From IMG/VR virus record IMGVR_UViG_3300045988_147339, positions 1 to 17,379 of that record: a stretch of DNA of 17,379 nucleotides. One strand, written 5' to 3'. The translations under genes were made by a program, and so were the position numbers. Positions 2,814-17,379 of this stretch are shown in pieces. Position 1 is the first letter of the stretch. Each line of letters starts with the position of its first letter. The stretch comes from a virus. The notes beneath the pieces are model-generated. The model ran no database searches and had not been told where the DNA came from. It was given only the letters and a program-made list of their open reading frames with translations.

Positions 2814-4994
2814 TTATTTACGATAAGTATCTTGAGAAGTTTCTACATTAATTGTATAGTAGAACTTATTCTTACCTTGATTAGTATAAGTTTTATATTC
2901 ACAATTTGTATCTGTAATTAATACTGGAGTGATAGTATTATCTTTAAGATTATGCAAATATACTTTGGTACTCTCAATTAGATTAAACATCTTAGAAGCT
3001 TGAATATCATTTAAATAACCAGTATAAAGAACCCAGCTTGAAGTTATAGTATTCAAATACTTATTTCTTGCAAACTCTTGTGATGTATTTAATACCTTAC
3101 GAGTATATGTTTCAGATTTAATCTCATCATTCTTTTTAACATTACCCTCAACAAGTAATGAATCTCATCCACCTGCTGAATTAGTATAATACAACACATA
3201 ATCTTTACCTGTAGTATCTATATCATATCTAATCTGTCTATCACTAATATTTCCCCCTTCTACAAATCCTACTATTAAATAGCTTCCACAAGGCCATAGT
3301 TTATTACTTAAATCTTCGGTATATGTATATCCATTAATTCCAGAATTTAAACTAATATCCATAGCAGATTGTACTCCGTCTATATAAAAGAATCTATTAA
3401 TAACTCCAGTTCCAGTTGGTAGAATTCAACTTGATACTAAATACTGCCTTGGATCAACTAAACCAGTAATAGGATCACTTAACATAGTGCCTTTAGTTAG
3501 ATCTCTATCTTTATAACTCCAGTCATTGAAGAAAGTAATTGGTTTTTCATTTCCACTAGATGTTATCAAAGTAAATGGTTTCAAATATTCTGGAGATATT
3601 ATAGTTTTAGAAGTATTAAATATAATACCATTAGATAGATAATTCTCAGCTACATTATTTAATAGAAACTCTACTCTATCAGTTTCTGGATATTTATAAG
3701 CCTTGCCAGCATAAACCATATCTCCTGCATAATCTAAATGATATTCAATAAAATCTGAACTGATTATCTCATTCCAAACATAATCTTTCCAAATAGGAGA
3801 TATATCAGATTTAACAGATTGTGTAATATTAATAGATAAATTAATAATACTTGAACTATTCTTTATAACAGATACTCCAATAGTTGCTTGTCTAGAAGAT
3901 AAACCTGAATTTTCTGCAATGTTCAAACTAATAGTTGCTACACCTTGAGAATTCACAGAGAGCTTCTGACCACTAATCCAACCTACAGGAATACTAAATA
4001 CAACATCATCTAAGTTATTTGAGCCTGTACCAATTATATTTAATGTAGATGCAGTTCAACTTACTTCATAATTAGTATTAGGAATCACTAAAGATGTTGC
4101 AGCTTGTTTAATTGGAACTGTAGCTTCAAGAGTATAACCTCCAGAAGTTGTTGCAGTAACCATTGCACTAAACTCCAAATTATTAGTAGTTTTATTCTCT
4201 GGAACAGTTAATACAAAATAGTTATCAACAATATCCTTTTTAATATTACTAGCTTGAGGGCAGGTAACATTAAATGAGGTAATTGTTTCTTCTGCTTTAG
4301 TTGTACTTAAATGGAATTCTTCAGTAACAAAAGCAGATGCTCCATAAGTTCCAGATGAAGGAGTTACTACTAGCTTTAAATCTTCTGGAGTATTACTTTT
4401 TTCAATTTTAAAGCCGTAACTATAACTAATAAATTTATTAGTATCATAATAAGCTCCTAATTGGATAGTTGCAGTTAAATCAGTATTTCATTGAGTATTA
4501 GCTCTTACTGTAACTTTAAACTTAATAGAGCAAGAATCTCAATCCAGAACTTCCATATTAACTAAAGCTGTAGCATTAACAACTGCTGCATCTCATTTAA
4601 TAATATCTGATCTATTTAATATATACTCTACTGTATATTCTCCACCAGTATTTGGTACTTTAATGGTGCCATTAGCAGGATAATATCCAGGAGCTTTACT
4701 ATGTAAATTAATTGGTAAATCTTCCTCTAATAAAGCAGTAGTAATGCCTCTAGGATAAAAATGAAATACAGTAGAAGAATCAGTAGTTATTGTTGTAGGA
4801 GATAAAAATTGTATTGTACATCCAGAAGTACTAGGCTCTTGTATAGTTACCTCTAAAGGCCCTTCTTCAGTATAATAATCTCCCCAAGCCCAATAATCAT
4901 ATTCTCCAGTAATTCCCCATCCAGGATTATTCCATTTAACAGGAAAACTCCTTGATGCGTTATATACTCCTAATTTACTTGGTATAAATGCCAT
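2814..4994 (-). CDS. Ig-like/BACON-like repeat virion protein (about 726 codons if continuous). Interrupted by one in-frame TAG at 4089-4091.
   Basis: ATG at 4992-4994 and TAA at 2814-2816. Fragments 4593..4994, 3426..3956, 3165..3362 and 2814..3056 share one frame. In-frame TGAs are at 4593, 4539, 4488, 4056, 3426 and 3165 (for example LD-W-DSCSIKFKVTV and NTQ-W-NTD). Repeated segments end in ...RQATIGVSV...INITQ-type strands typical of Ig/BACON folds. No start codon follows the TAG until GTG at 3954, which argues for a single protein. See the finding on the 4078-4142 frame anomaly. Confidence 0.6.
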
Positions 4995-5518: not shown

Positions 5519-5543
5519 AAATAGGGAGATTTACTCCCTATTT
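5519..5543. other. Perfect 10-bp stem-loop (AAATAGGGAG / ATTTA / CTCCCTATTT).
   Basis: Read directly from the sequence. It lies between the chaperone-like gene and the 159-aa gene, immediately beside repeat copy 1. There is no clean U-tract on either strand, so a terminator role is unproven. Confidence 0.5.
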
Positions 5544-5545
5544 AA

Positions 5546-5595
5546 GTGTCTACTTTTTACTCACTTTTAGTAGTTAAAATAAATAAAAATAGACA
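5546..5595 (+). repeat. Copy 1 of a conserved 50-bp intergenic element.
   Basis: The sequence GTGTCTACTTTTTACTCACTTTTAGTAGTTAAAATAAATAAAAATAGACA aligns with 11085-11134 in the same orientation and with 12881-12930 in reverse complement. The shared blocks are TGTC(T/A)A, TTTTTACTCA and ATAAAAATAGACA. Confidence 0.8.
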
Positions 5596-6401: not shown

Positions 6402-7649
6402 CTATTTAATTTTAATATTATAATGTCCTTTGTTTGTATTTAATGAGTCATAGGCTAACATTAATGAAATTACTGTATCATCATTAAATCCAGATGGAGC
6501 ATTATAACTAACATTTCCAGTTTTTGGATTATATGAAGCTTCATATAGTCTTAACTCATTTAAAAGTTTATCATCTTTTAATAATCCTATCTTTTCATTC
6601 TCCAAAGCAGCTTGAAGCTTATTAACTATATCTGCCTTACTCTTATTAGTAGTTAAGAATCGTATAATCCTGATTTTCGGATTCTTCTGAACTAACATAT
6701 CATAGAAGACACTACCAATTGAGTTTTGTTCAACTTGTACAATCTTTATAAATCCTTGATACTCAGTTAGTATATTTGTTAATAAATCAACTTGCTCTGT
6801 TGGAGTTTTATCGTTAAAATACTTTATAAAGACCATTTGCCCAGATTCATTTAAAGCAGTAACACAAGTATAGTCTTTACCACTCCCAGTAGCCCAGTCT
6901 ATTCCTATATAAAGACTCTGATAATCTGGTTTTTTCTCAATTATGCAATTAGCTATATTATTAAATAAACATCCATCATCATCTGCAAATTCCCCTAAAT
7001 ATTCGGTTCTAAATTTATTTTTTGAGGTTGTAAGTCGATACATCTCTAACTTCTCTTTATCTAAAAGCATAGATGTATCTTCTAAAGCTCAATCAAATGA
7101 TTTATAGAACTTGTCATATTTCGGATCTAACCCTTTAGTAAAGCAGTCATAAAAGAAACCCTCTCGGAACCTTGGAGTACTAATAATTAATATTGGAGCA
7201 GACCACACATCAGTAGTAGGTTTAATAATTTCAAATACTTCATCTTTTAAGTAAGCAGCCTCATCTAATACAAGTAATCCACTTACAGAGAATCCTCGTA
7301 ACGAATCCATTTGTTCTCCAGATCTAAATAATATAGAACTGCCATTATTAAACTCTAATTCAAGCAAAGTTTCATTCTTACGTTTAAGAATATCTGCTTC
7401 AGCTATAGCATTAACTATTTCTTTAAACACTTTTCTTGATTGCCCAAGAGTAGGTTCTACTATACAATTGACTGTTTTTGGATAGTTAATTGCAAATCGT
7501 AATAATTCATTTTCAGCTAAGAAAGATTTACCTACTTGTCGTTTAGCTTTAATTGTAAATATCCTTCCAGATCTATAAGCATCTGCCATAGCTATATGAA
7601 CCTTATATTGGTACATAAATGGCCTATATCCTTTATATATCCTTGTCAT
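6402..7649 (-). CDS. terL: Terminase large subunit (415 aa with TGA=Trp).
   Basis: Track fragments 7089..7649 and 6402..7070 are in one frame and are joined by TGA at 7089-7091 (..KSFD-W-ALEDTSMLL..). Motifs seen are Walker A AKRQVGKS, Walker B LLVLDEAAY and the ISTP coupling motif. The C-terminal RNase-H-like nuclease shows IGIDWATGSGKDY and FNDDTVISL. Confidence 0.9.
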
Positions 7650-8402: not shown

Positions 8403-8732
8403 TTAATTAATAAGTTTGTATATAACATCTATCAGCTTAGTAGATGCATCTTTTAATAATATCATAATATCTTTAATAATTGGAGTCATAAATGCTAATA
8501 GTGCAATATATCCAACCATTAAAATTGAAAATTGACTTGTAATAAGAATATATATTAATCCAATTCACCAAGTCATACATAAACTGCAATCTAAAGGTTT
8601 TAGTCTTCAATCTTCTTTATAAGGTATACCTTTAAATAGTCTTTTTCAAATACTGTGTTTAAAACTATCCAAAGCCCCAGATAAATCAATTATAAAGACT
8701 ATTATTACTGCTATTATAAATAATTCTAACAT
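8403..8732 (-). CDS. Three-pass membrane protein with a CxxC motif (109 aa). Absent from the ORF track.
   Basis: I translated it by hand: MLELFIIAVIIVFIIDLSGALDSFKHSI-W-KRLFKGIPYKED-W-RLKPLDCSLCMTW-W-IGLIYILITSQFSILMVGYIALLAFMTPIIKDIMILLKDASTKLIDVIYKLIN*. There are three in-frame TGAs. The length of 330 nt is divisible by 3. The ATG overlaps the TAG of the upstream gene (ATGTTAG). Confidence 0.7.
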
Positions 8733-8971
8733 AATCTCTCTCTTATTTGTTTAATAAATCTTTGAATTGTAGTATGACTAATTCCTAATATTCTTCCCAC
8801 TTCTCTATAACTGTGATATTCAGCATATAATATGATTACTGTCTTATCTGCCTTATTAAGCTCAAGTCATTTTGGATATATACTTAATAGTCTATCATCC
8901 ATATTTGTAAACATACTATAGTCTATTTCATACTCAGTAAGTAAATCGTCAATATTAATCTTCCGTTTCAT
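8726..8971 (-). CDS. Sigma-70 region-4-like HTH protein (81 aa), the sigma4 half of a split sigma factor.
   Basis: Hand translation: MKRKINIDDLLTEYEIDYSMFTNMDDRLLSIYPK-W-LELNKADKTVIILYAEYHSYREVGRILGISHTTIQRFIKQIRERLC*. The pattern L..L....r.v..L....g.sy.EIa..LGis..TV......r..L is the classic region 4.2 pattern. There is one in-frame TGA upstream of the HTH. Not in the ORF track. Confidence 0.65.
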
Positions 8972-9263
8972 TTAATCAATCCTCCAATTCGTCATTTTGT
9001 TGTTCAAGTGGTTCTTTAACAATCTCATAATATTTCTTATAGGTATAGTAATATCTACTTGTTTTACTAAACCAATAATTCTTAAATAATCTTGTAATCC
9101 AAAATTTCAATTCATTTTTGCTATCAAGCTGATTTAATTTTGGATTTGAATACTCTAGTATTTCTACAAAAATCATTTGAACACAGTCATCATCTGCACC
9201 AAATTTTTGCTTAAGTTCCATAATAAATGGATAGTACTTTTCTACAATTTCGTTATTACTCAT
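8955..9263 (-). CDS. Sigma-70 region-2-like protein, the sigma2 half of a split sigma factor. It ends at TGA 8976 under the standard code, or at TAA 8955 with TGA=Trp.
   Basis: The segments ...GADDDCVQMIFVEILEY...ELKFWITRLFKNYWFSKTSRYY match the ECF-type region 2 pattern (DLVQE.F..., ..WL.RIA.N...D..R). A TAA in the sigma4 frame sits immediately before the sigma4 ATG, so the two halves cannot be fused by a simple frameshift. Confidence 0.6.
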
Positions 9264-9750
9264 ATGTTCACATATATCCTCCTGCTGTTTTTCGCTGCCC
9301 TTTAAGAACCTTTACAATATTTCTAGATTGTATATTTAGTTCTCTCTCAGCATCTATTGCTGAATCCCATCTTTTAATAACTATTCCATTTAGTAATTGC
9401 AGTATTGGTTTCTTATGACTATATCCAGCTCGCAGATTATGAGTTCCATAATTATTATTATAATTATAAGTACACCATTCTAAATTACTTACATTATTAT
9501 TTGATTTATTTTCATCCTTATGATTTATACAAGGATAGTTATTCGGATTAGATATAAAAGTTTCAGCTACTAATCTATGTATATAACACTTCTTTTTCAA
9601 ATTTTTATTATATAATGTTACTGTAAAGTACCCATTAGTTTTTACTTGAGGTTTTAACCTCTTTGGAACTGATGCTCTTAAACTTCATATTGAGCCATCA
9701 GTTCCAATTTGGTAGTTTTCAAAATTAAGTATTCTTTTATAGGCTATCAT
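9256..9750 (-). CDS. HNH homing endonuclease (164 aa with TGA=Trp).
   Basis: ATG at 9748-9750 and TAA at 9256-9258. Hand translation: MIAYKRILNFENYQIGTDGSI-W-SLRASVPKRLKPQVKTNGYFTVTLYNKNLKKKCYIHRLVAETFISNPNNYPCINHKDENKSNNNVSNLEWCT...TAGGYM-W-TYE*. TGA 9685 falls on the conserved Trp of the dG.vWS motif. HRLVA..F and NHKD.NK.NN...NLEW form the HNH_3 core. Confidence 0.85.
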
Positions 9751-10651: not shown

Positions 10652-10683
10652 CAAATATACAACAAAAAAATCAAATCTCCAAA
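10652..10683 (-). promoter_or_regulatory. Bacteroidota-type promoter candidate driving the leftward operon.
   Basis: On the minus strand the sequence reads TTTG (10683-10680), then 20 nt, then TATATTTG (10659-10652). This matches the -33 TTTG / -7 TAnnTTTG consensus. The surrounding sequence TGTTGTATATTTGTAATATCAA is near-identical to the two rightward modules. Confidence 0.55.
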
Positions 10684-10723: not shown

Positions 10724-10755
10724 TTTGGAAATTTAAAAATAATGTTATATCTTTG
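10724..10755 (+). promoter_or_regulatory. Bacteroidota-type promoter candidate (rightward, copy 1 of the tandem module).
   Basis: TTTG at 10724-10727, then 20 nt, then TATCTTTG at 10748-10755. It is part of a roughly 53-bp module (10718-10770) that repeats 83 bp downstream. Confidence 0.55.
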
Positions 10756-10806: not shown

Positions 10807-10838
10807 TTTGGATTTTAAATAAAAATGTTGTATATTTG
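10807..10838 (+). promoter_or_regulatory. Bacteroidota-type promoter candidate (rightward, copy 2).
   Basis: TTTG at 10807-10810, then 20 nt, then TATATTTG at 10831-10838. It lies about 40 nt upstream of the ATG at 10880. Confidence 0.55.
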
Positions 10839-10879: not shown

Positions 10880-11035
10880 ATGAAAAATTCGATTAAAAAC
10901 AATGGAACAATTATTATTGAAGATAATACAATTAAGAGCACTATGGAGAATTCAATTCCTTGTTCTGATGAACAATTTGCTAACTTATTAGCTAACTCTC
11001 CTACAATTGCAGCTTATTTTAGTAAAAATAAGTAA
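10880..11035 (+). CDS. 51-aa hypothetical early protein.
   Basis: ATG to TAA, no in-frame TGA: MKNSIKNNGTIIIEDNTIKSTMENSIPCSDEQFANLLANSPTIAAYFSKNK. It is framed by the tandem promoters upstream and a terminator hairpin 15 nt downstream. Confidence 0.5.
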   Translation: MKNSIKNNGTIIIEDNTIKSTMENSIPCSDEQFANLLANSPTIAAYFSKNK

Positions 11036-11049
11036 TTCTACTACTTCTA

Positions 11050-11075
11050 GGCAGGTGAAAATCCTGCCACTTTTT
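11050..11075 (+). terminator. Rho-independent terminator candidate.
   Basis: GGCAGG (11050-11055), loop TGAAAAT, CCTGCC (11063-11068), then ACTTTTT. Confidence 0.6.
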
Positions 11076-11084
11076 AACATTAAG

Positions 11085-11134
11085 GTGTCAAATTTTTACT
11101 CACTTGATGTGTATAGATAAAATAAAAATAGACA
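11085..11134 (+). repeat. Copy 2 of the 50-bp element, the left arm of the inverted pair around the helicase gene.
   Basis: Sequence GGTGTCAAATTTTTACTCACTTGATGTGTATAGATAAAATAAAAATAGACA. See copy 1 and copy 3. Confidence 0.8.
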
Positions 11135-11159
11135 ATTAATAACCAAAATTATTACAACT

Positions 11160-12878
11160 ATGAAAACATATTTAAATGAAATTATTAATGAGTTGCCAAC
11201 TAACTGTTTATTTGATAAAGGAAAAGTTGGATGTGGAGGAACTTCAATGGCAATTGAATGCAATAAGCCTTATGTTATTTGTGTTCCATTTACTAGCTTA
11301 GTTGAAAATAAACTTCAACAATATCCAAATGAAAGACGTACTGAGAAGATATTTGGAGTTTATGCTGGTGTTACTATTAAAGAGATTAAAGATTATGTAG
11401 ATAGTGTTAAATGCCCTAAAATCATTGTTACCTATGATTCTCTTTATAAAGTTATTTCTGCAATTAATCCTAAAGAGTTTAGCATTTTAATTGATGAATA
11501 TCATATTCTCTTTAATCAGTATAGCTTTAGAAGCTCTGCTATTCAATCAGTGCTTAAATATTATAAATTATTTGGTAATTTTACATTTATGACCGCAACA
11601 CCTTTAGAGGAAGAGTTTGTATTAGATGAATTAAAAGATTTAGAATTAGTAAAGCAGGAATGGGATGATGTTATAGATGTAAAAGTGCAAACTGTTAAAT
11701 GTGATAATGTAGAAGCTTCTACTATTAAACTTATAAATGGATTTTTAAACGGACAGGTTGAAGGTAACGCCTACATATTCGTTAATTCAGTAGACTTTAT
11801 AAAGAACCTTATTAAGAAAGCCAAATTAACATCTAATAATACCAGAGTTATATATTCCAAAAACAATAAAACTAAACTGTCAATTCCTAATTCAACAGTC
11901 TTAGATGAACCTAAGAAAATAAACTTATTAACTTCAACTGTATTTGAAGGTTCAGATATTTATGATGAAAATGGAAGGATAATAATTATATCTGATCCAA
12001 GTAAAGCTAATACATTACTTGATATATCAACTTCTATACAGCAGATTGCTGGTAGAATTAGAAATAGTAAATATATTAATTGGATAACTCACATTTATTC
12101 TACAACAAGATATGCTGATATATCTTATGAAGAATTTAAAAAGCTTAATATCCAGAATATTGAAGAAACTAAAATTGCTGTAGAAGCATACAATAAACTT
12201 CCAGAGATAGCTAAAAAGAAACTTAGAGAATTTACTTCTGATGCATACATTAAATTAAATTGGGATGATGTATTTGAATTTGACCCTAATATGGCTAAAA
12301 TTGATTTATTTAATTTTAAAGTATCTAGGGGACTGTATTCTGCTAGAGCTAATCTTTCTAAGGAATATATTAATAAAGGATTTAATAAAGTGGTAGAACA
12401 ATATGATAATTCTATAAAAATAGATCTAAATACTAAAACAAAAGCATTTAAAGATATAATTAAAGAAGTAAGAGAGGAATATGAAACCTTATATAAGGTA
12501 AACACCCCAAAATTAGATGATGCTCTTATTAAATACCCTTGGTTAATGGATGCTATTACTAAACTTGGATTCAATAAAATGGCCACTCTAAAATACTGTA
12601 TTACTAAAATAAAAGATGAACTTATTAAAACTTCAGATAAATCTGTAGATAATAAAGTAGCAAATAAACTTAATAAAGATATAACTTTAGGTATGTGGTA
12701 TTCTAATACTGATATTAAAAAGATACTACAAAAAGCTTATGATTTAGTTAATAAAACTAATGCTAAAGCTACTGATATTACAAAATATTATGAAGTTAAG
12801 GTAACTAAAAAATCAGTGAATGGAAACAGATCTTATGGATATACTATTATAGGTAAAAAGTATGTCTTTAAAAATTAG
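11160..12878 (+). CDS. SF2 (DExH-type) helicase-like protein with a long C-terminal extension. Probable replication or early function.
   Basis: Uninterrupted 572-aa ORF under the standard code, ending in TAG. Motifs seen are a P-loop-like GKVGCGGTS, motif II LIDEYH, motif III MTATP and motif VI QQIAGRIRN. All five Trp codons are TGG. Confidence 0.8.
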   Translation: MKTYLNEIINELPTNCLFDKGKVGCGGTSMAIECNKPYVICVPFTSLVENKLQQYPNERRTEKIFGVYAGVTIKEIKDYVDSVKCPKIIVTYDSLYKVISAINPKEFSILIDEYHILFNQYSFRSSAIQSVLKYYKLFGNFTFMTATPLEEEFVLDELKDLELVKQEWDDVIDVKVQTVKCDNVEASTIKLINGFLNGQVEGNAYIFVNSVDFIKNLIKKAKLTSNNTRVIYSKNNKTKLSIPNSTVLDEPKKINLLTSTVFEGSDIYDENGRIIIISDPSKANTLLDISTSIQQIAGRIRNSKYINWITHIYSTTRYADISYEEFKKLNIQNIEETKIAVEAYNKLPEIAKKKLREFTSDAYIKLNWDDVFEFDPNMAKIDLFNFKVSRGLYSARANLSKEYINKGFNKVVEQYDNSIKIDLNTKTKAFKDIIKEVREEYETLYKVNTPKLDDALIKYPWLMDAITKLGFNKMATLKYCITKIKDELIKTSDKSVDNKVANKLNKDITLGMWYSNTDIKKILQKAYDLVNKTNAKATDITKYYEVKVTKKSVNGNRSYGYTIIGKKYVFKN

Positions 12879-12880
12879 TA

Positions 12881-12930
12881 TGTCTATTTTTATTTTTATC
12901 TATATACATTAGTTGAGTAAAAAATAGACA
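12881..12930 (-). repeat. Copy 3 of the 50-bp element, inverted; the right arm of the pair.
   Basis: Plus-strand sequence TGTCTATTTTTATTTTTATCTATATACATTAGTTGAGTAAAAAATAGACA. Its reverse complement aligns with copies 1 and 2. It starts 3 nt after the helicase TAG. Confidence 0.8.
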
Positions 12931-12950
12931 TTTATTAAAATATTTTAATT

Positions 12951-13112
12951 ATGGAAAATGATATTAAAGAAACAATTAAACAAACAGAAGAGTATATTAA
13001 AGAGTTAGATAGATGAATGCTCGAATGTAAAGAGGCTACTAAAAGATTTGGTGATATTATAGACAAAGTATTAAAAAATAAAGATTATATGTTTATTTCT
13101 AAATTTGATTAA
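12951..13112 (+). CDS. Hypothetical small protein (53 aa if TGA 13014 is read as Trp).
   Basis: Translation: MENDIKETIKQTEEYIKELDR-W-MLECKEATKRFGDIIDKVLKNKDYMFISKFD*. Under the standard code it splits into 21-aa and 31-aa pieces, with an ATG directly after the TGA. Confidence 0.4.
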
Positions 13113-13114
13113 TT

Positions 13115-13237
13115 ATGGATGATCATTTATTTAAAAAGCTTGAAGAACTAGAATACAGAATAGTTCAACTAGAAAACCAGAATAGAGGTTTAGTTTGGGA
13201 AGAAGTAGAAGAAATGCCAAAACCAGAAATTACTAAT
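13115..13237 (+). CDS. Hypothetical small coiled-coil-like protein (40 aa).
   Basis: ATG lies 2 nt after the previous TAA. Translation: MDDHLFKKLEELEYRIVQLENQNRGLVWERSRRNAKTRNY*. The only support is that the frame is open and the genes are tightly packed. Confidence 0.3.
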
Positions 13238-13404
13238 GCAACATATACTGATTAATATGAAATACCAAACCTATAAAGTATGTATAAATGGAGTGTATTA
13301 TGTATATGTAATACCAGAAAATAGTAAGTTTTTAGTAGACTTACAAACAGGAGATTTAATACCTAAAGAAGATGATAAATTATTTGAAATAATGGAATAA
13401 ATGA

Positions 13405-13432
13405 AAATAGGAGGGTTTATACCCTCCTATTT
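13405..13432. terminator. Bidirectional terminator candidate between convergent transcription units.
   Basis: Perfect 11-bp stem AAATAGGAGGG / loop TTTATA / CCCTCCTATTT. T-rich sequence follows on both strands. The stem resembles the one at 5519-5543. Confidence 0.6.
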
Positions 13433-13653
13433 CTGTTTAAATCTTTGATAATTACTAACCGATGAATGAATAGCTTTATGACAAACTGAACACATCAGTT
13501 ACAAGTTTGGCAGTGGTAGTTATCCCGCAATAATATTTGCTCTCTAATGGCCTTAAAATCCTTTGATCTTATATATCTTTGGTACTTTAAATATTCTTCA
13601 CTTCTTACTTTCTTCTTTGTCTTATGAAGCAGTTTACTTGATTTGGAGTCCAT
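13417..13653 (-). pseudogene. Probable HNH-endonuclease remnant or small zinc-ribbon ORF.
   Basis: ATG at 13651-13653. The N-terminal part ...FKAIREQILLRDNYHCQTCN is HNH-like and is followed by TGA at 13495. The typical HNH C-terminal motif (M)CSVCHKAIH occurs in a different frame (13493 down to TAG 13427-13429). The His-Asn catalytic core between the two parts is missing. With TGA=Trp the original frame runs on to TAA at 13417, inside the terminator hairpin. Confidence 0.35.
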
Positions 13654-14272: not shown

Positions 14273-14926
14273 TTATTTACTTAAAATTATACTTACTTTA
14301 ATTCCTGCATCTCTTAGTTTTACTCAAGTATCAACTGGCATCTCATTATCACAATAAGATAATCCTAAAATTCCAATATCTCTATCTTCTGATTTTAAAT
14401 AGAATATTGCTATCTTATTAACCTCATTAGATTTAAATGCATAATACATTCTTCTATCTAATTCCTTTATATCTTCAACATCTCCAAATCATCCTCCTTT
14501 TTTAGATGTTTCCAATATAAATAAATAATCAGATAATAGGAAGTCTTTATAGTGACTTGAAACTGGAGCAACTCCAGGTTCTGTTTCTTCACTATTCATA
14601 ATTCCATAAGTGAATGGTAATCCTCCTAATCCTGAAGTGCCATTATGATACTCAATAACTCAAGCTCTATCTGCATTCGTATCATTTAAAAGGTCTTTAA
14701 GGATATATCTAACCTTAAGATCCGCTTCTTGTCGTATTACTTGATTAGTATTATGAACTGTTTCTATATAACTTACAACTTTATCATATATTATTCCTGG
14801 ATTAGTACTTATAATTATTACATAAGAAATAAATATAAATCCAAATCCACCTTTAATTATTTTCCACAGTCCATATTTATCTACTCATTCTAATACCTTT
14901 CCAAACCAGTTTAATTTATTTTCCAT
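14273..14926 (-). CDS. 217-aa membrane protein with one N-proximal TM and a large C-terminal domain. Its architecture resembles the T4 t-type (class III) holin. Absent from the ORF track.
   Basis: I verified the hand translation line by line. The length of 654 nt is divisible by 3. There are four in-frame TGAs (14885, 14660, 14489, 14324). Sequence: MENKLNWFGKVLE-W-VDKYGLWKIIKGGFGFIFISYVIIIS...ADRA-W-VIEYHNG...KKGG-W-FGD...PVDT-W-VKLRDAGIKVSIILSK*. It lies directly upstream of the small TM protein and the endolysin. The link to T4 gp t rests on size and topology only. Confidence 0.7.
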
Positions 14927-15510
14927 TACATATTATACTTAAAGGTATATCCTTTAGTTTGTTTTTGTCTTCCACTTAAAACGGAAGATATTAAAGAAGA
15001 AGTTATATTTAACTCTCTTGCTGCTGATCTTATACTTTTATAAGATTTTATAAATCTTCCATCTAAAGTATATTGACTAATAGCTTTAGTTCCATAGTTT
15101 TGATTTTTCTTGCGTATTAATTCCTTAGTTTCTTCAGAATGATGCTTTCCATAAAATGGATTTTTATTTCCTGTTCTAGTTTTAGCAAATTCAGAAATAA
15201 TAACTTTAGTTTCATTAGAAACTATCGGATGATTACTTGTGTCAGTTCTATTATAACCAAATCTTAAATCTGTAGTATTATAATAGCTAAAGAAGTATTT
15301 TTCAAGATATTTCATTTCCGATTCACTATTTACATAATAAATAGTGTGTTTAATATTGTTTCAACCGTACTTTTTAATTGGTCTGTAAACAAATTGATCT
15401 TTATATCCTTCTCCACCTCTTCATCTACTATTTACTGATTGAGTAGTCAATCCAACATATCTTTTACCATTTGGAAAAGTATGAATATAAACTACATACT
15501 GTCTTGACAT
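14926..15510 (-). CDS. GIY-YIG homing endonuclease (194 aa with TGA=Trp).
   Basis: N-terminus recovered through TGA 15421 and TGA 15361: MSRQYVVYIHTFPNGKRYVGLTTQSVNSR-W-RGGEGYKDQFVYRPIKKYG-W-NNIKHTIYYV... The NUMOD3-like NPFYGKHHSEETKELIRK and a C-terminal IENR1-like HTH are present. The gene overlaps its upstream neighbour by 19 nt. Confidence 0.85.
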
Positions 15511-15919: not shown

Positions 15920-16609
15920 TTACTTACTCTTTTTATTATTACTTGAAGGGAAATCATAAGCTCTTTGAAGAGGTCCCTCTCCAGGTTTAATGCTCCATCC
16001 TTTACCTCTTGCTCCACCAAGCCAAATATTGCAAGATGAGCTAGAGTAAAGATTGGGAAACATATCCTTTAATGGCTTATATGTATAAAGCTCAGGGAAT
16101 TCGTTATAATATGTAATTATAAAGTCCTGTAAACGAGTCTTAAAGAAATCCGCCTTATCTCTATAATACTTCTTAATTTGATTTACTTGACTTGCTTCAG
16201 CAGCAATATCTTTCTCATCATCAGTTCTCATAACTCCAAAATTACCAAGCTTATAAGATATAGGAATTACTATCTCGCTAAGTACTTGATAAAGTAAATA
16301 AGGCTGAACATAATAGTCTAATAGCTCTTTATATCTGTAGTTATCAGAATCATCAATAGAATCACTTGGAAGTGGCTCAGGAGGTTCTATTGGATGAACT
16401 GGAGTATGAGGATCAATCCAATTAATACATTTCTTTTGTAATGCTTCCAATAGCTTAGTACCAATAGTTGACTGAAGCTCTACATCTTGAGCACTTGTGA
16501 TGGCTGCTTGTAAATATTTACCCGATATATTGTTATCTAATGTAGAATTTGACTTTATATAGTCTTCTGAAATAAGCAGTACATTTCTATAGTTAAGTTG
16601 TTCCATCAT
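15920..16609 (-). CDS. Hypothetical virion protein, possibly a head-tail connector/adaptor type (229 aa).
   Basis: Intact ORF running ATG to TAA. The N-terminal pattern ..EDYIKSNSTLDNNISGKYLQAAITSAQDVELQSTIGTKLLEAL.. resembles gp6-like connector proteins, recalled from memory only. All three Trp codons are TGG. Confidence 0.7.
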   Translation of the reverse strand: MMEQLNYRNVLLISEDYIKSNSTLDNNISGKYLQAAITSAQDVELQSTIGTKLLEALQKKCINWIDPHTPVHPIEPPEPLPSDSIDDSDNYRYKELLDYYVQPYLLYQVLSEIVIPISYKLGNFGVMRTDDEKDIAAEASQVNQIKKYYRDKADFFKTRLQDFIITYYNEFPELYTYKPLKDMFPNLYSSSSCNIWLGGARGKGWSIKPGEGPLQRAYDFPSSNNKKSK

Positions 16610-17201
16610 AAATAAATTTATTGTTTTTATAAGGTCTATTTTCTTTTAAAGCTAAATATAATCCAGAACGTTCTCCATTAACTGATTTAACAGCTTCTTT
16701 CATTGAATTATATCTTGCAATAAAATTCCCATTCATATCAAATCTTAATATAGGCTTAACTCTAGTAATTCGTCCTTTGGAAGCATTTCCAATTTTAATA
16801 AGTGTTTCCAAAGTATAGATTCCTTTCTTTCCTTTATTCCAGGGTGTTTTACCTTTTTTAGAATTTGACATTTTTGTTCTACTCTCATTAGAAAAAGAAT
16901 ACCCGTATGTACCTTCTCCTCCTGATGTTATATTGTAACCATTTTCAGGAGTATTTGTTTTATATTTATGTATCAATATCCTTTCTAATGTCTTAGCACA
17001 AGCTTCTGGTAAATTATCTTTAATTATGATATGTTCAAATCCATCTCAGCTATATTTTTGTATCGCTTTATAAAAGTAAGCTTGAGTAGAGTATCCATAT
17101 CCATTTTTTCACCTAGCTTGCACACTTTGTCCAGTAATGCCAAAATATAGCTTATTGTTATACTTATTTATATGGCAATAAACAGTATAATTATTCAACA
17201 T
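16593..17201 (-). CDS. GIY-YIG homing endonuclease (202 aa with TGA=Trp).
   Basis: ATG at 17199-17201. Hand translation: MLNNYTVYCHINKYNNKLYFGITGQSVQAR-W-KNGYGYSTQAYFYKAIQKYS-W-DGFEHIIIKDNLPEACAKTLERILIHKYKTNTPENGYNITSGGEG... TGAs are at 17109 and 17046. I checked all in-frame triplets from 16977 to 17201 and found no TAA or TAG. The gene overlaps both neighbours (17 nt and 11 nt). Confidence 0.85.
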
Positions 17202-17379
17202 TTTGTTTGCTATCTTCTTGTCCATTTGGAGTTAAGCTAAAAGGAGTTATAGTTATTGAACCTTTCATTCCAAATATCTTATCAAATGTATCTACTATTT
17301 CGACCTGAATTGGTCTAACTACTGTACGATTATAAAGTTTAAAAGCTTCATTAAATTCTTGTTCGTTGAATCCACTTGA
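17191..17379 (-). CDS. C-terminal 62 codons of a gene that begins beyond the right edge (possibly portal or another morphogenesis protein).
   Basis: Open from the window edge to TAA at 17191-17193: SSGFNEQEFNEAFKLYNRTVVRPIQVEIVDTFDKIFGMKGSITITPFSLTPNGQEDSKQNVE*. The resemblance to portal C-termini is weak and from memory. Confidence 0.5.
   Translation of the reverse strand, partial: SSGFNEQEFNEAFKLYNRTVVRPIQVEIVDTFDKIFGMKGSITITPFSLTPNGQEDSKQNVE

Follow-up and report, generated by a model that had tools for sequence, protein, structure and literature searches.

The window analysed here, the whole stretch of 17,379 nucleotides of the virus record IMGVR_UViG_3300045988_147339, carries at 11085-12930 a gene for an orphan superfamily 2 (SF2) helicase of 572 amino acids (aa), enclosed by two inverted copies of an A/T-rich element of about 50 bp. 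Nearly all genes of the window are on the minus strand; those whose products can be recognised encode a large terminase of the T4 type, an M15 peptidase, several homing endonucleases (HNH and GIY-YIG) and a protein resembling a helix-turn-helix (HTH) domain or sigma region 4. The plus-strand block extends from 10880 to 13400 and contains a 51-aa open reading frame (ORF), the 572-aa gene and three small genes. A first-pass annotation, made from the sequence only, had described the helicase gene as the only long gene of this strand, and indeed the remaining plus-strand ORFs do not exceed 54 aa. The G+C content of the window is 26-31%. The exact sequence of the 572-aa protein was found on many human-gut metagenome contigs of 29.5-32.5 kb, whose gene orders overlap to give a circle of about 31 kb. 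The window is thus part of a ~31-kb human-gut phage in which TGA is a sense codon: under the standard code its genes are fragmented, and reading TGA as sense restores long ORFs, for instance of 937+, 726 and 415 aa.

The two inverted copies reported in the first-pass annotation are real, with 43 identical positions out of 50 and one 1-nt indel, and its spacing was right as well: the stop codon TAG occupies 12876-12878 and the right copy starts at 12881, and the left copy ends at 11134, 25 nt before the ATG at 11160. A repeat search ranked the pair 11086-11128/12888-12930 first in length among the inverted repeats of the window, with arms of 43 nt and an ungapped complementarity of 81%; exact matches between the copies do not exceed 13 nt. 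The short inverted termini ascribed to each copy are perfect over 12 bp in the right one (TGTCTATTTTT...AAAAATAGACA) but imperfect in the left one (TGTCAAATTTTT...AAAAATAGACA). The two-box pattern TTTTTACTCA-N18-30-AAAAATAGACA gave three matches in the window, against none in 200 dinucleotide-preserving shuffles. A third copy, overlooked in the first reading, is intergenic and on the plus strand. Given this copy, at 5547-5595, the helicase gene is not uniquely marked by the element. Here we call the third copy A, the left copy B and the right copy C (Table 1), while the letters D and E are used for two further sites seen in relatives.

Table 1. Element copies and associated features of the window (positions counted from its first nucleotide)
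Feature	Position	Strand	Remarks
Element copy A	5547-5595	+	between 219-aa and 159-aa late genes
Element copy B (left copy)	11086-11134	+	TGTCAAA-TTTTT-ACTCACTTGATGTGTATAGATAAAAT-AAAAA-TAGACA; 17 nt past terminator hairpin, 25 nt before helicase ATG
Element copy C (right copy)	12881-12930	-	inverted relative to B; 12-bp perfect termini; between helicase stop and 53-aa gene
572-aa orphan SF2 helicase gene	11160-12878	+	motifs GCGGTS, DEYH, TAT, QQIAGRIR; no in-frame TGA
GC-cored hairpin	5519-5543	.	AAATAGGGAG-ATTTA-CTCCCTATTT; 3 nt from copy A; A-runs and T-runs make it terminator-like on both strands
Terminator-like hairpin (intrinsic)	11050-11068	+	GGCAGGTGAAAATCCTGCC then ACTTTTT; directly upstream of copy B
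Bidirectional terminator-like hairpin	13404-13433	.	where the plus-strand block meets minus-strand genes
Leftward promoter motif	10652-10659	faces left	TTTG-N19-21-TAnnTTTG type
Rightward tandem promoter motifs	10748-10755, 10831-10838	face right	within 51-nt direct repeats
Three small genes (53, 46, 54 aa)	12951-13400	+	downstream of copy C; kept even where the helicase gene is replaced

The pair belongs to a dispersed family of A/T-rich quasi-palindromes of about 50 bp and accounts for two of its roughly five members. We searched about 60 related contigs with a profile derived from the known copies (L-numbers, such as L001, L016 or L153, are our labels for related contigs and loci). Besides site C, downstream of the 572-aa gene and inverted, the element was found at four syntenic intergenic sites: between the 219/206-aa and the 159/162-aa genes (A), upstream of the 572-aa gene (B), straight after the stop codon of a capsid-like gene of ~320-340 aa (D) and between the 777-aa and 197-aa genes (E). 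Each copy consists of an arm of 6-7 nt, a T-run, an asymmetric core of ~25 nt (ACTCA ... GTAnTAnAGA), an A-run and the complementary arm; the consensus of the lineage is TGTCAAG-TTTTT(T)-ACTCA-N4-5-GTAsTAAGAA-AAAATAAAAA-CTGACA, and the copies are 80-86% identical to each other. When IMG/VR was scanned with 16-mers, about half of the matches were due to chance, in unrelated contigs, and full elements occurred in this lineage only.

Patterns of occurrence differed among the sites. Wherever a genome of the lineage has the gene, copy B precedes it, while copy C is confined to the genomes with the ~100% allele of the 572-aa gene; with alleles at 80%, 78% and 70-75% identity there is no C, and the stop codon runs straight into the next gene or terminator. 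This distribution marks copy C as a recent, lineage-restricted addition. L015 and L016 have no element at site D but retain the GC hairpin that follows the capsid-like gene. At site A the element is flipped in place between conserved flanks in L010, L014-16, L029, L033, L035, L153 and L155 (at 3912-3969 in L010 and 20499-20556 in L014, to be compared with 5547-5595 of the window). The flipped allele has TGTAAC/GTTACA arms and is closer to the B allele of other genomes than to its own positional homologues, which suggests hairpin-mediated flipping or an exchange between sites. Single copies can therefore be dispensed with or flipped, C being absent with other alleles, D lost and A inverted.

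In the orientation of the window, A, B, D and E are all on the plus strand, and A, D and E are antisense to the surrounding late genes. The common orientation and even spacing of these copies was not used as evidence, since with four copies it is expected by chance about once in eight. On the plus strand a GC-cored, terminator-like hairpin precedes each of A, B and D, and these hairpins are dissimilar to each other in sequence.

The arms change between copies and stay complementary. Five combinations of terminal hexamers were observed, three of them perfect (TGTCAA/TTGACA, TGTAAC/GTTACA and TGTCTA/TAGACA) and two with one mismatch each (TGTCAA/CTGACA and TGTCAA/TAGACA), and the complementary termini, of 6-13 bp, amount to terminal inverted repeats; the mean number of arm mismatches is 0.4, against 1.45 in cross-pairings. 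In an alignment of 12 sequences (alignment A3), 86% of the cells are standard pairs, compared with 76.5% after shuffling of the partners (the observed value was reached in 0 of 500 shuffles); sliding the partner reduces pairing to 35-60%, and the covariation score is 0.197 vs 0.061. Because compensatory changes keep the arms complementary, the two arms either pair with each other, forming a hairpin or cruciform in the DNA, or are recognised together as a symmetric unit. Within the window, only copy C forms a DNA hairpin that clearly beats shuffles (z = -3.4).

Concerning more distant relatives, we examined the 200 nt upstream of the helicase gene and found a quasi-palindrome of the same build at 80, 70, 58, 50, 46, 41 and 33% protein identity (for example TGCTGGGATTTTTA...TAAAAATACCAGCA, TGAGGGTTTTTTT...AAAAAAACCCTCA, AATCCTTACATTTTTT...AAAAATTGTAAGGATT and CCTATATTTTTT...AAAAAATATAGG). 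It begins with an arm of 5-8 nt that varies in sequence, continues with a T-run, a core of 21-33 nt and an A-run, and closes with the complement of the arm. Its distance from the ATG is 34-120 nt, its orientation never changes, and a terminator hairpin usually comes directly before it. The arms are unrelated between lineages and yet complementary within each (among others TGTAAC/GTTACA, GCTGGGA/TACCAGC, GAGGG/CCCTC, CCTTACA/TGTAAGG, CCTATA/TATAGG and GTGTGACA/TGTCACAC). Since a MAFFT alignment across deep lineages lost the register of the stem, arm complementarity was scored for each sequence against its shuffles, and in 12 of 36 upstream regions the inverted-repeat score was not reached by any of 60 shuffles. 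Across lineages the core retains a loose signature, A(A/C)T..GGTA..TA(A/T)AGA, in which the spacing from the T-run to the GGTA/TAnAGA block varies from 8 to 13 nt.

The 41% lineage offers a view of how the arms evolve: a base pair has been inserted in both arms among genomes whose helicases are 96.5-99.5% identical, and one-sided intermediates exist, a case of compensatory evolution not tracking the protein. In the distant lineages two to five short (C/T)AGATT repeats (iterons) are located between the element and the gene. There the element is single, except for L101, of the 46%-identity lineage, with two identical tandem copies (2462-2511 and 2564-2613, 102 nt apart), and L093, of the 80% lineage, with a half copy at 9653-9673, 250 nt upstream of the full element; both extra copies are again upstream of the gene. 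Dispersal to other sites is peculiar to the lineage of the window. The founding member of the family is copy B, an ancient element that accompanies the helicase gene.

A member of the 41% lineage, L118 (9440-9945), is temperate, uses the standard code and encodes a serine recombinase and a methyltransferase. Its leader of 475 nt contains, in order, a host-type promoter, a GC hairpin, TAAGCGTAG twice within a terminator, the quasi-palindrome and AAACTCCAGAT twice, and so provides the helicase gene with a complex, origin-like leader.

The 572-aa protein has more than 1000 homologues, mostly on phage-sized contigs and in genomes of Bacteroidota, Chlorobiota and Ignavibacteriota. The SF2 motifs are invariant in this family (GxGGT, DExH, TAT and QQxxGRxR) and are followed by a C-terminal domain of ~250 aa with no assigned function; searches of Pfam, PHROG, NCBIfam and PDB sequences assigned the protein to no family. 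An AlphaFold2 (AF2) model has a mean pLDDT of 83. Searched with Foldseek against the PDB, it retrieved SF2 helicases in general (DEAD-box, RecQ, UvsW, Mfd and UL9 of herpes simplex virus (HSV), entry 9hgi), and against viral models many of the top matches are named replication origin-binding proteins, from giant viruses and herpesviruses.

Four genomes (L016, L153, L154 and L155) lack the helicase gene as well as copies B and C. The module that replaces them (12957-15351 in L016, and also present in the other three) has a 261-aa HNH/HTH gene in the place of the helicase gene and a divergent part with a host-type promoter, a terminator, two pairs of direct repeats (TCGATTCAGTACCC twice and ATAAAAGTAATACTATA twice) and a 248-aa gene with weak HTH matches. 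From its content the replacement looks like an alternative, presumably iteron-type replication module. Given this module swap, copy B therefore sits where an origin or an operator would be expected.

The region between 10650 and 10851 is a divergent early promoter region with three copies of the Bacteroidota-type motif TTTG-N19-21-TAnnTTTG, one facing left and two facing right. The promoter-like motif measures ~26 nt (TGTTrTATaTTTGTAnTATCAA), and the rightward pair drives the 51-aa ORF only, after which comes the plus-strand terminator that separates these host-type promoters from copy B. A terminator-like hairpin is likewise present before the equivalent element in other lineages, and an equivalent of the GC-cored hairpin beside copy A adjoins copy D in relatives. 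In none of the lineages examined does a host-type promoter (TAnnTTTG) lie between this terminator and the start codon of the helicase gene; the gene is therefore expressed from within the element or via read-through. The Bacteroidota-type motif was not found inside the element either. A scan with the sigma-70 consensus was uninformative, because its 110 sites are no excess over the 121.5 obtained in shuffles. Two overlapping minus-strand ORFs of 81 aa (8726-8971) and 102 aa (8955-9263) gave weak matches, below curated cut-offs, to extracytoplasmic function (ECF)-type sigma-70 factors, the 102-aa ORF to the N-terminal and the 81-aa ORF to the C-terminal half. Every related genome has this pair, the helicase-less ones among them, and it could be a split sigma factor or a single frameshifted gene.

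Our preferred reading of these data, held tentatively and with less than even confidence, is that the element is a cruciform-capable origin and control element of the helicase replication module that has been copied to other intergenic sites. According to this hypothesis the element would be the cis-acting start site of the module: its A/T core, prone to unwinding, would be clamped by the pairing arms, and a helicase of the origin-binding type would be loaded there. The element would probably overlap the promoter of the helicase gene itself, as in the herpesvirus OriS with UL9 and in the T4 origins made of a promoter and an unwinding element. In the lineage of the window, copying would have taken it to three or four more sites between genes, and the loss or inversion of any one copy there is harmless. 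It follows that the gene is bracketed by accident and that no cassette boundary is marked. We favour a structure-forming start site acting at the DNA level because the arms are compensatory and either orientation is tolerated, because an initiator-like helicase adjoins the element across deep lineages, with iterons in the neighbourhood, and because gene and element are swapped out as one in the four helicase-less genomes; OriS with UL9 is a precedent that adds to this.

In HSV, OriS consists of inverted boxes around an A/T spacer, and its hairpin form is bound by an SF2 origin-binding protein (PMC12543377). The correspondence with the phage system includes an SF2 helicase with an extra C-terminal domain together with an imperfect palindrome of ~50 bp (PMC12543377), inverted arms that flank an A/T-rich spacer, a role for the pairing of the arms within one strand, the presence of several copies per genome and, as reported above, UL9 and many viral origin-binding proteins among the structural matches. 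However, the 572-aa protein lies outside the sequence family of UL9 and no RVKNL-type motif, for which no search was made, was seen in it, the phage arms vary freely, even within one genome, where OriS has fixed recognition boxes, and copies of the phage element persist without the helicase, its origin function being putative. A second comparison is with T4. The origins ori(uvsY) and ori(34) of this phage consist of a middle promoter and a downstream DNA-unwinding element and are not palindromic. They show how an A/T-rich element near a promoter, beside a replication gene, could serve both transcription and initiation, and the T4 helicase UvsW is among the fold matches; the element of the window, unlike them, is palindromic.

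Several observations weigh against an origin. The likeness of the protein to origin-binding helicases is that of a generic SF2 core (TM about 0.4); the Pfam family Herpes_ori_bp was not matched, the sole Pfam match being a weak one to Helicase_C_2 in 9 of 30 family members. The lineage hairpins are thermodynamically weak as single-stranded DNA, with A/T stems and loops of 25-30 nt, and their energy beats shuffles in two of eight copies only (C and the B copy of L014). Nor are the elements the least stable duplex of the window, B being at the 14th percentile. Different arm types share one genome, as in L014 with TGTAAC arms at two sites (A and B) and TGTCAA/TAGACA at a third (D), and they are therefore not the half-site of one protein. 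All four helicase-less genomes keep A, and L154 also D, with arms intact or nearly so; copies A and D are thus independent of the helicase, or else left over from module swaps that happened recently. A 31-kb genome with four or five origins would be out of the ordinary, and the absence of a separate helicase promoter between terminator and ATG fits a promoter within the element at least as well. The first-pass annotation had listed a binding site or origin for the helicase as one possible role, and this idea is plausible for the left copy, whose equivalents are found upstream of the gene in many distant lineages and which is lost with the gene; other copies, however, persist in helicase-less genomes. 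The wider proposal, that many phages and prophages of the Bacteroidota type would start replication in a herpesvirus-like way, an orphan SF2 helicase acting on an A/T quasi-palindrome with pairing arms just ahead of its own gene, which in the TGA-recoded phage of the window would have multiplied to four or five interchangeable, flippable copies, is doubtful, and we would put it forward as an unlikely but not far-fetched generalisation.

The strongest competitor, itself rather unlikely but clearly in contention, is a portable middle or late promoter recognised by host RNA polymerase with the split ECF-type sigma of the phage, a promoter or operator for the phage sigma factor having been among the roles listed in the first-pass annotation. 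Copy B would then drive the helicase gene, and the other copies would act at operon junctions beside terminators, in the manner of the terminator/promoter cassettes (PeSLs) of T4-type phages. The position of B speaks for it, directly past a terminator and 25-50 nt before the ATG with no intervening host-type promoter in every lineage examined, and so does that of A, D and E, exactly at the junctions of three late gene blocks and each beside a GC hairpin; moreover the sigma-like pair is present in every genome, even in the helicase-less ones that retain A and D. Read in the forward orientation, all copies of the lineage fit TGT(C/A)A(A/C)-N17-GTA, which resembles ECF promoters. An example of the latter is TGTAAC-N17-CGAC. 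When the element was read as ECF -35 and -10 boxes, which are conserved, have a fixed spacing of 16-18 nt and face the gene served, the N17 spacing fitted in the lineage, but the arm is not conserved across lineages and the orientation is right only for B and the flipped A. A, D and E point away from the operons to be served and are antisense to them, C is directed into the helicase gene from its 3' end, and at site A both orientations are found. The arm, which would have to serve as the -35 box, is entirely different from one lineage to the next and covaries with its partner arm, something that a promoter leaves unexplained, and the distance from the T-run to the GGTA/TAnAGA block varies across lineages, from 8 to 13 nt. 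Furthermore D is dispensable, the distant lineages have only one copy, upstream of the helicase gene, which cannot be their general late promoter, and the sigma assignment itself is weak.

PeSLs provide a precedent for such a promoter, as composite terminator/promoter repeats linked to gene gain and loss (PMC4122927). They combine a stem-loop terminator with a host-type early promoter and are co-oriented with the genes that they flank (PMC2839356, PMC4122927). Both PeSLs and the phage element are short conserved intergenic repeats with a stem-loop terminator beside a conserved element, both mark module boundaries with gene gain, loss and replacement, and both can bracket single genes. The element differs in having no host-type promoter motif, in being itself a quasi-palindrome and in being antisense at three of five sites, and the GC hairpins beside it are dissimilar to each other. 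A PeSL-type identity was accordingly rejected for it, in spite of the GC hairpin beside A, B and D.

We consider it quite unlikely that the family is a selfish or neutral repeat in which B alone is functional and A, C, D and E are passengers, spread by ectopic gene conversion, by template switching at hairpins or in the way of miniature inverted-repeat transposable elements (MITEs). Among syntenic genomes copies have been gained (C), lost (D) and flipped (A), the flipped A allele is nearer to B of other genomes than to its positional homologues, and multi-copy dispersal is found in one lineage only, all of which such a repeat would explain. The terminal inverted repeats recall MITEs, with which the copies share a short, A/T-rich, multi-copy and intergenic character. 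On the other hand, neither a transposase nor a recombinase was detected in the ~31-kb genome, no target-site duplication is visible, the positions are syntenic, and one copy is held at a fixed place across deeply diverged lineages; the stability of the four core sites over about 60 contigs and the complementarity of the arms site by site suggest selection. The flipping at site A has a parallel in chloroplast non-coding DNA, where small hairpin-associated inversions are regarded as neutral by-products of hairpin formation. There too a loop enclosed by short inverted repeats is turned around between unchanged flanks, but the flipped A allele also has different arms and may be a recombination import.

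An element acting as RNA is improbable. A hairpin in the 5' untranslated region of the helicase mRNA, serving as translational operator or stability element, would account for the constant orientation relative to the helicase gene in all lineages and for the stem-like compensatory changes of the arms, and it would be transcribed if the upstream terminator were read through. Its position downstream of that terminator is nevertheless awkward, the stems are rich in A-U with loops of 25-30 nt, Rfam gave no match for it, and the other copies are antisense to their neighbours, so that their RNA would bear the complementary loop.

It is very improbable that the copies are insulating terminators around a gene transcribed against the flow of the genome, as the first-pass annotation had also proposed. 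The elements are intergenic, and C and D begin 1-3 nt past a stop codon; yet they have no GC-rich stem, the loop is of 25-30 nt instead of 3-8 nt, and the T-run is inside the stem and not 3' of it. A terminator scan skips them and calls separate GC hairpins (11050-11068 and 13404-13433), and L016 keeps the hairpin after the capsid-like gene without having the element. Hardly credible is the proposed invertible or mobile cassette, in which recombination between the inverted copies would flip or move the helicase gene: inverted repeats around a single gene have the right geometry and small-scale flipping does occur within the element at site A, but the 1.7-kb segment has one orientation in all contigs with both copies, at least 17 distinct ones (L001-L010, L013, L017-L021 and L037; assemblies are consensus sequences, which could mask a rare inversion), the right copy is absent with the 70-80% alleles, the exact match between B and C is only 13 nt at its longest, the natural module swap of L016 has other end points, and no integrase or invertase family is among the precomputed Pfam matches of the whole ~31-kb gene set, in which no recombinase or transposase gene was detected.

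Other identities were tried and discarded. A MITE or insertion sequence would have duplicated flanks, which A, B, C and D do not have, and a transposase. Integron attC sites, with RYYYAAC ... GTTRRRY cores, are resembled by the TGTAAC/GTTACA allele only, and no integrase was detected. The ACTCA loop was considered as a mini-tRNA with a UCA anticodon, but the surroundings of the loop do not fit and other lineages do not conserve TCA. As for known RNA families and tRNA-like genes, there was no relevant Rfam match and ARAGORN found none.

The element is akin to known palindromic origin or control elements, or to composite regulatory repeats of phages. In either case the picture of a cassette is misleading: what lies at the locus is one conserved regulatory or origin element and its recent inverted duplicate, within a small dispersed family. 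The 572-aa protein is a member of a group of more than 1000 uncharacterised helicases of phages and prophages of Bacteroidota and relatives, and since no polymerase or primase is recognisable in these ~31-kb phages, the helicase gene and its upstream element are the sole visible handle on their replication. A conserved, structured cis-element that evolves by compensation offers a concrete target, a helicase and 50 bp of DNA, in uncultured and widespread gut phages. An origin would mean that the design of an SF2 origin-binding helicase with a palindromic origin, so far one of herpesviruses and giant viruses, extends to phages; as a promoter, the element would define the regulon of a split phage sigma factor.

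Concerning the genetic code, the window has 36 in-frame TGA and 44 TGG codons and no gene that ends in TGA (examples of TGA read as sense are in 1-2811, 2814-4994, 6402-7649 and 8726-9263). In-frame TGA is also present in both sigma-like genes and in genes of the early operon, while the helicase gene has no TGA and five TGG. tRNA searches with ARAGORN found no tRNA gene in the whole ~31-kb genome. Despite the recoding of TGA, the early promoters are Bacteroidota-type in appearance, and start codons are without Shine-Dalgarno sequences. An Rfam search of the window gave a single sub-threshold match, to the eukaryotic snoRNA R43 (6913-6984, minus strand, within the terminase gene), which at 34 bits against a gathering score of 50 bits is almost certainly due to chance.

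No near-identical phage record was found in INPHARED, and a tblastn search gave only seven distant matches. One larger contig, IMGVR_UViG_3300045988_175865 of 148,631 nt (L036/L077), contains a relative of the ~31-kb phage, which may be a prophage, a concatemer or part of a chimeric assembly and might point to the host. We also noticed that nine of about 35 contig ends (those of L017, L018, L020, L031, L034, L092, L096, L098 and L099) lie either in the roughly 900 nt that precede the helicase ATG or a short way into the gene. This cluster could be a hotspot of assembly breaks, from strain variation or a drop of coverage at A/T-rich palindromes, or a true feature of the DNA ends. Free-standing homing endonuclease genes of the HNH or GIY-YIG type number five to eight per genome (in the window 9256-9750, 14926-15510 and 16593-17225), and in the gene tables of L001-L016 their count and positions vary among otherwise near-identical contigs.

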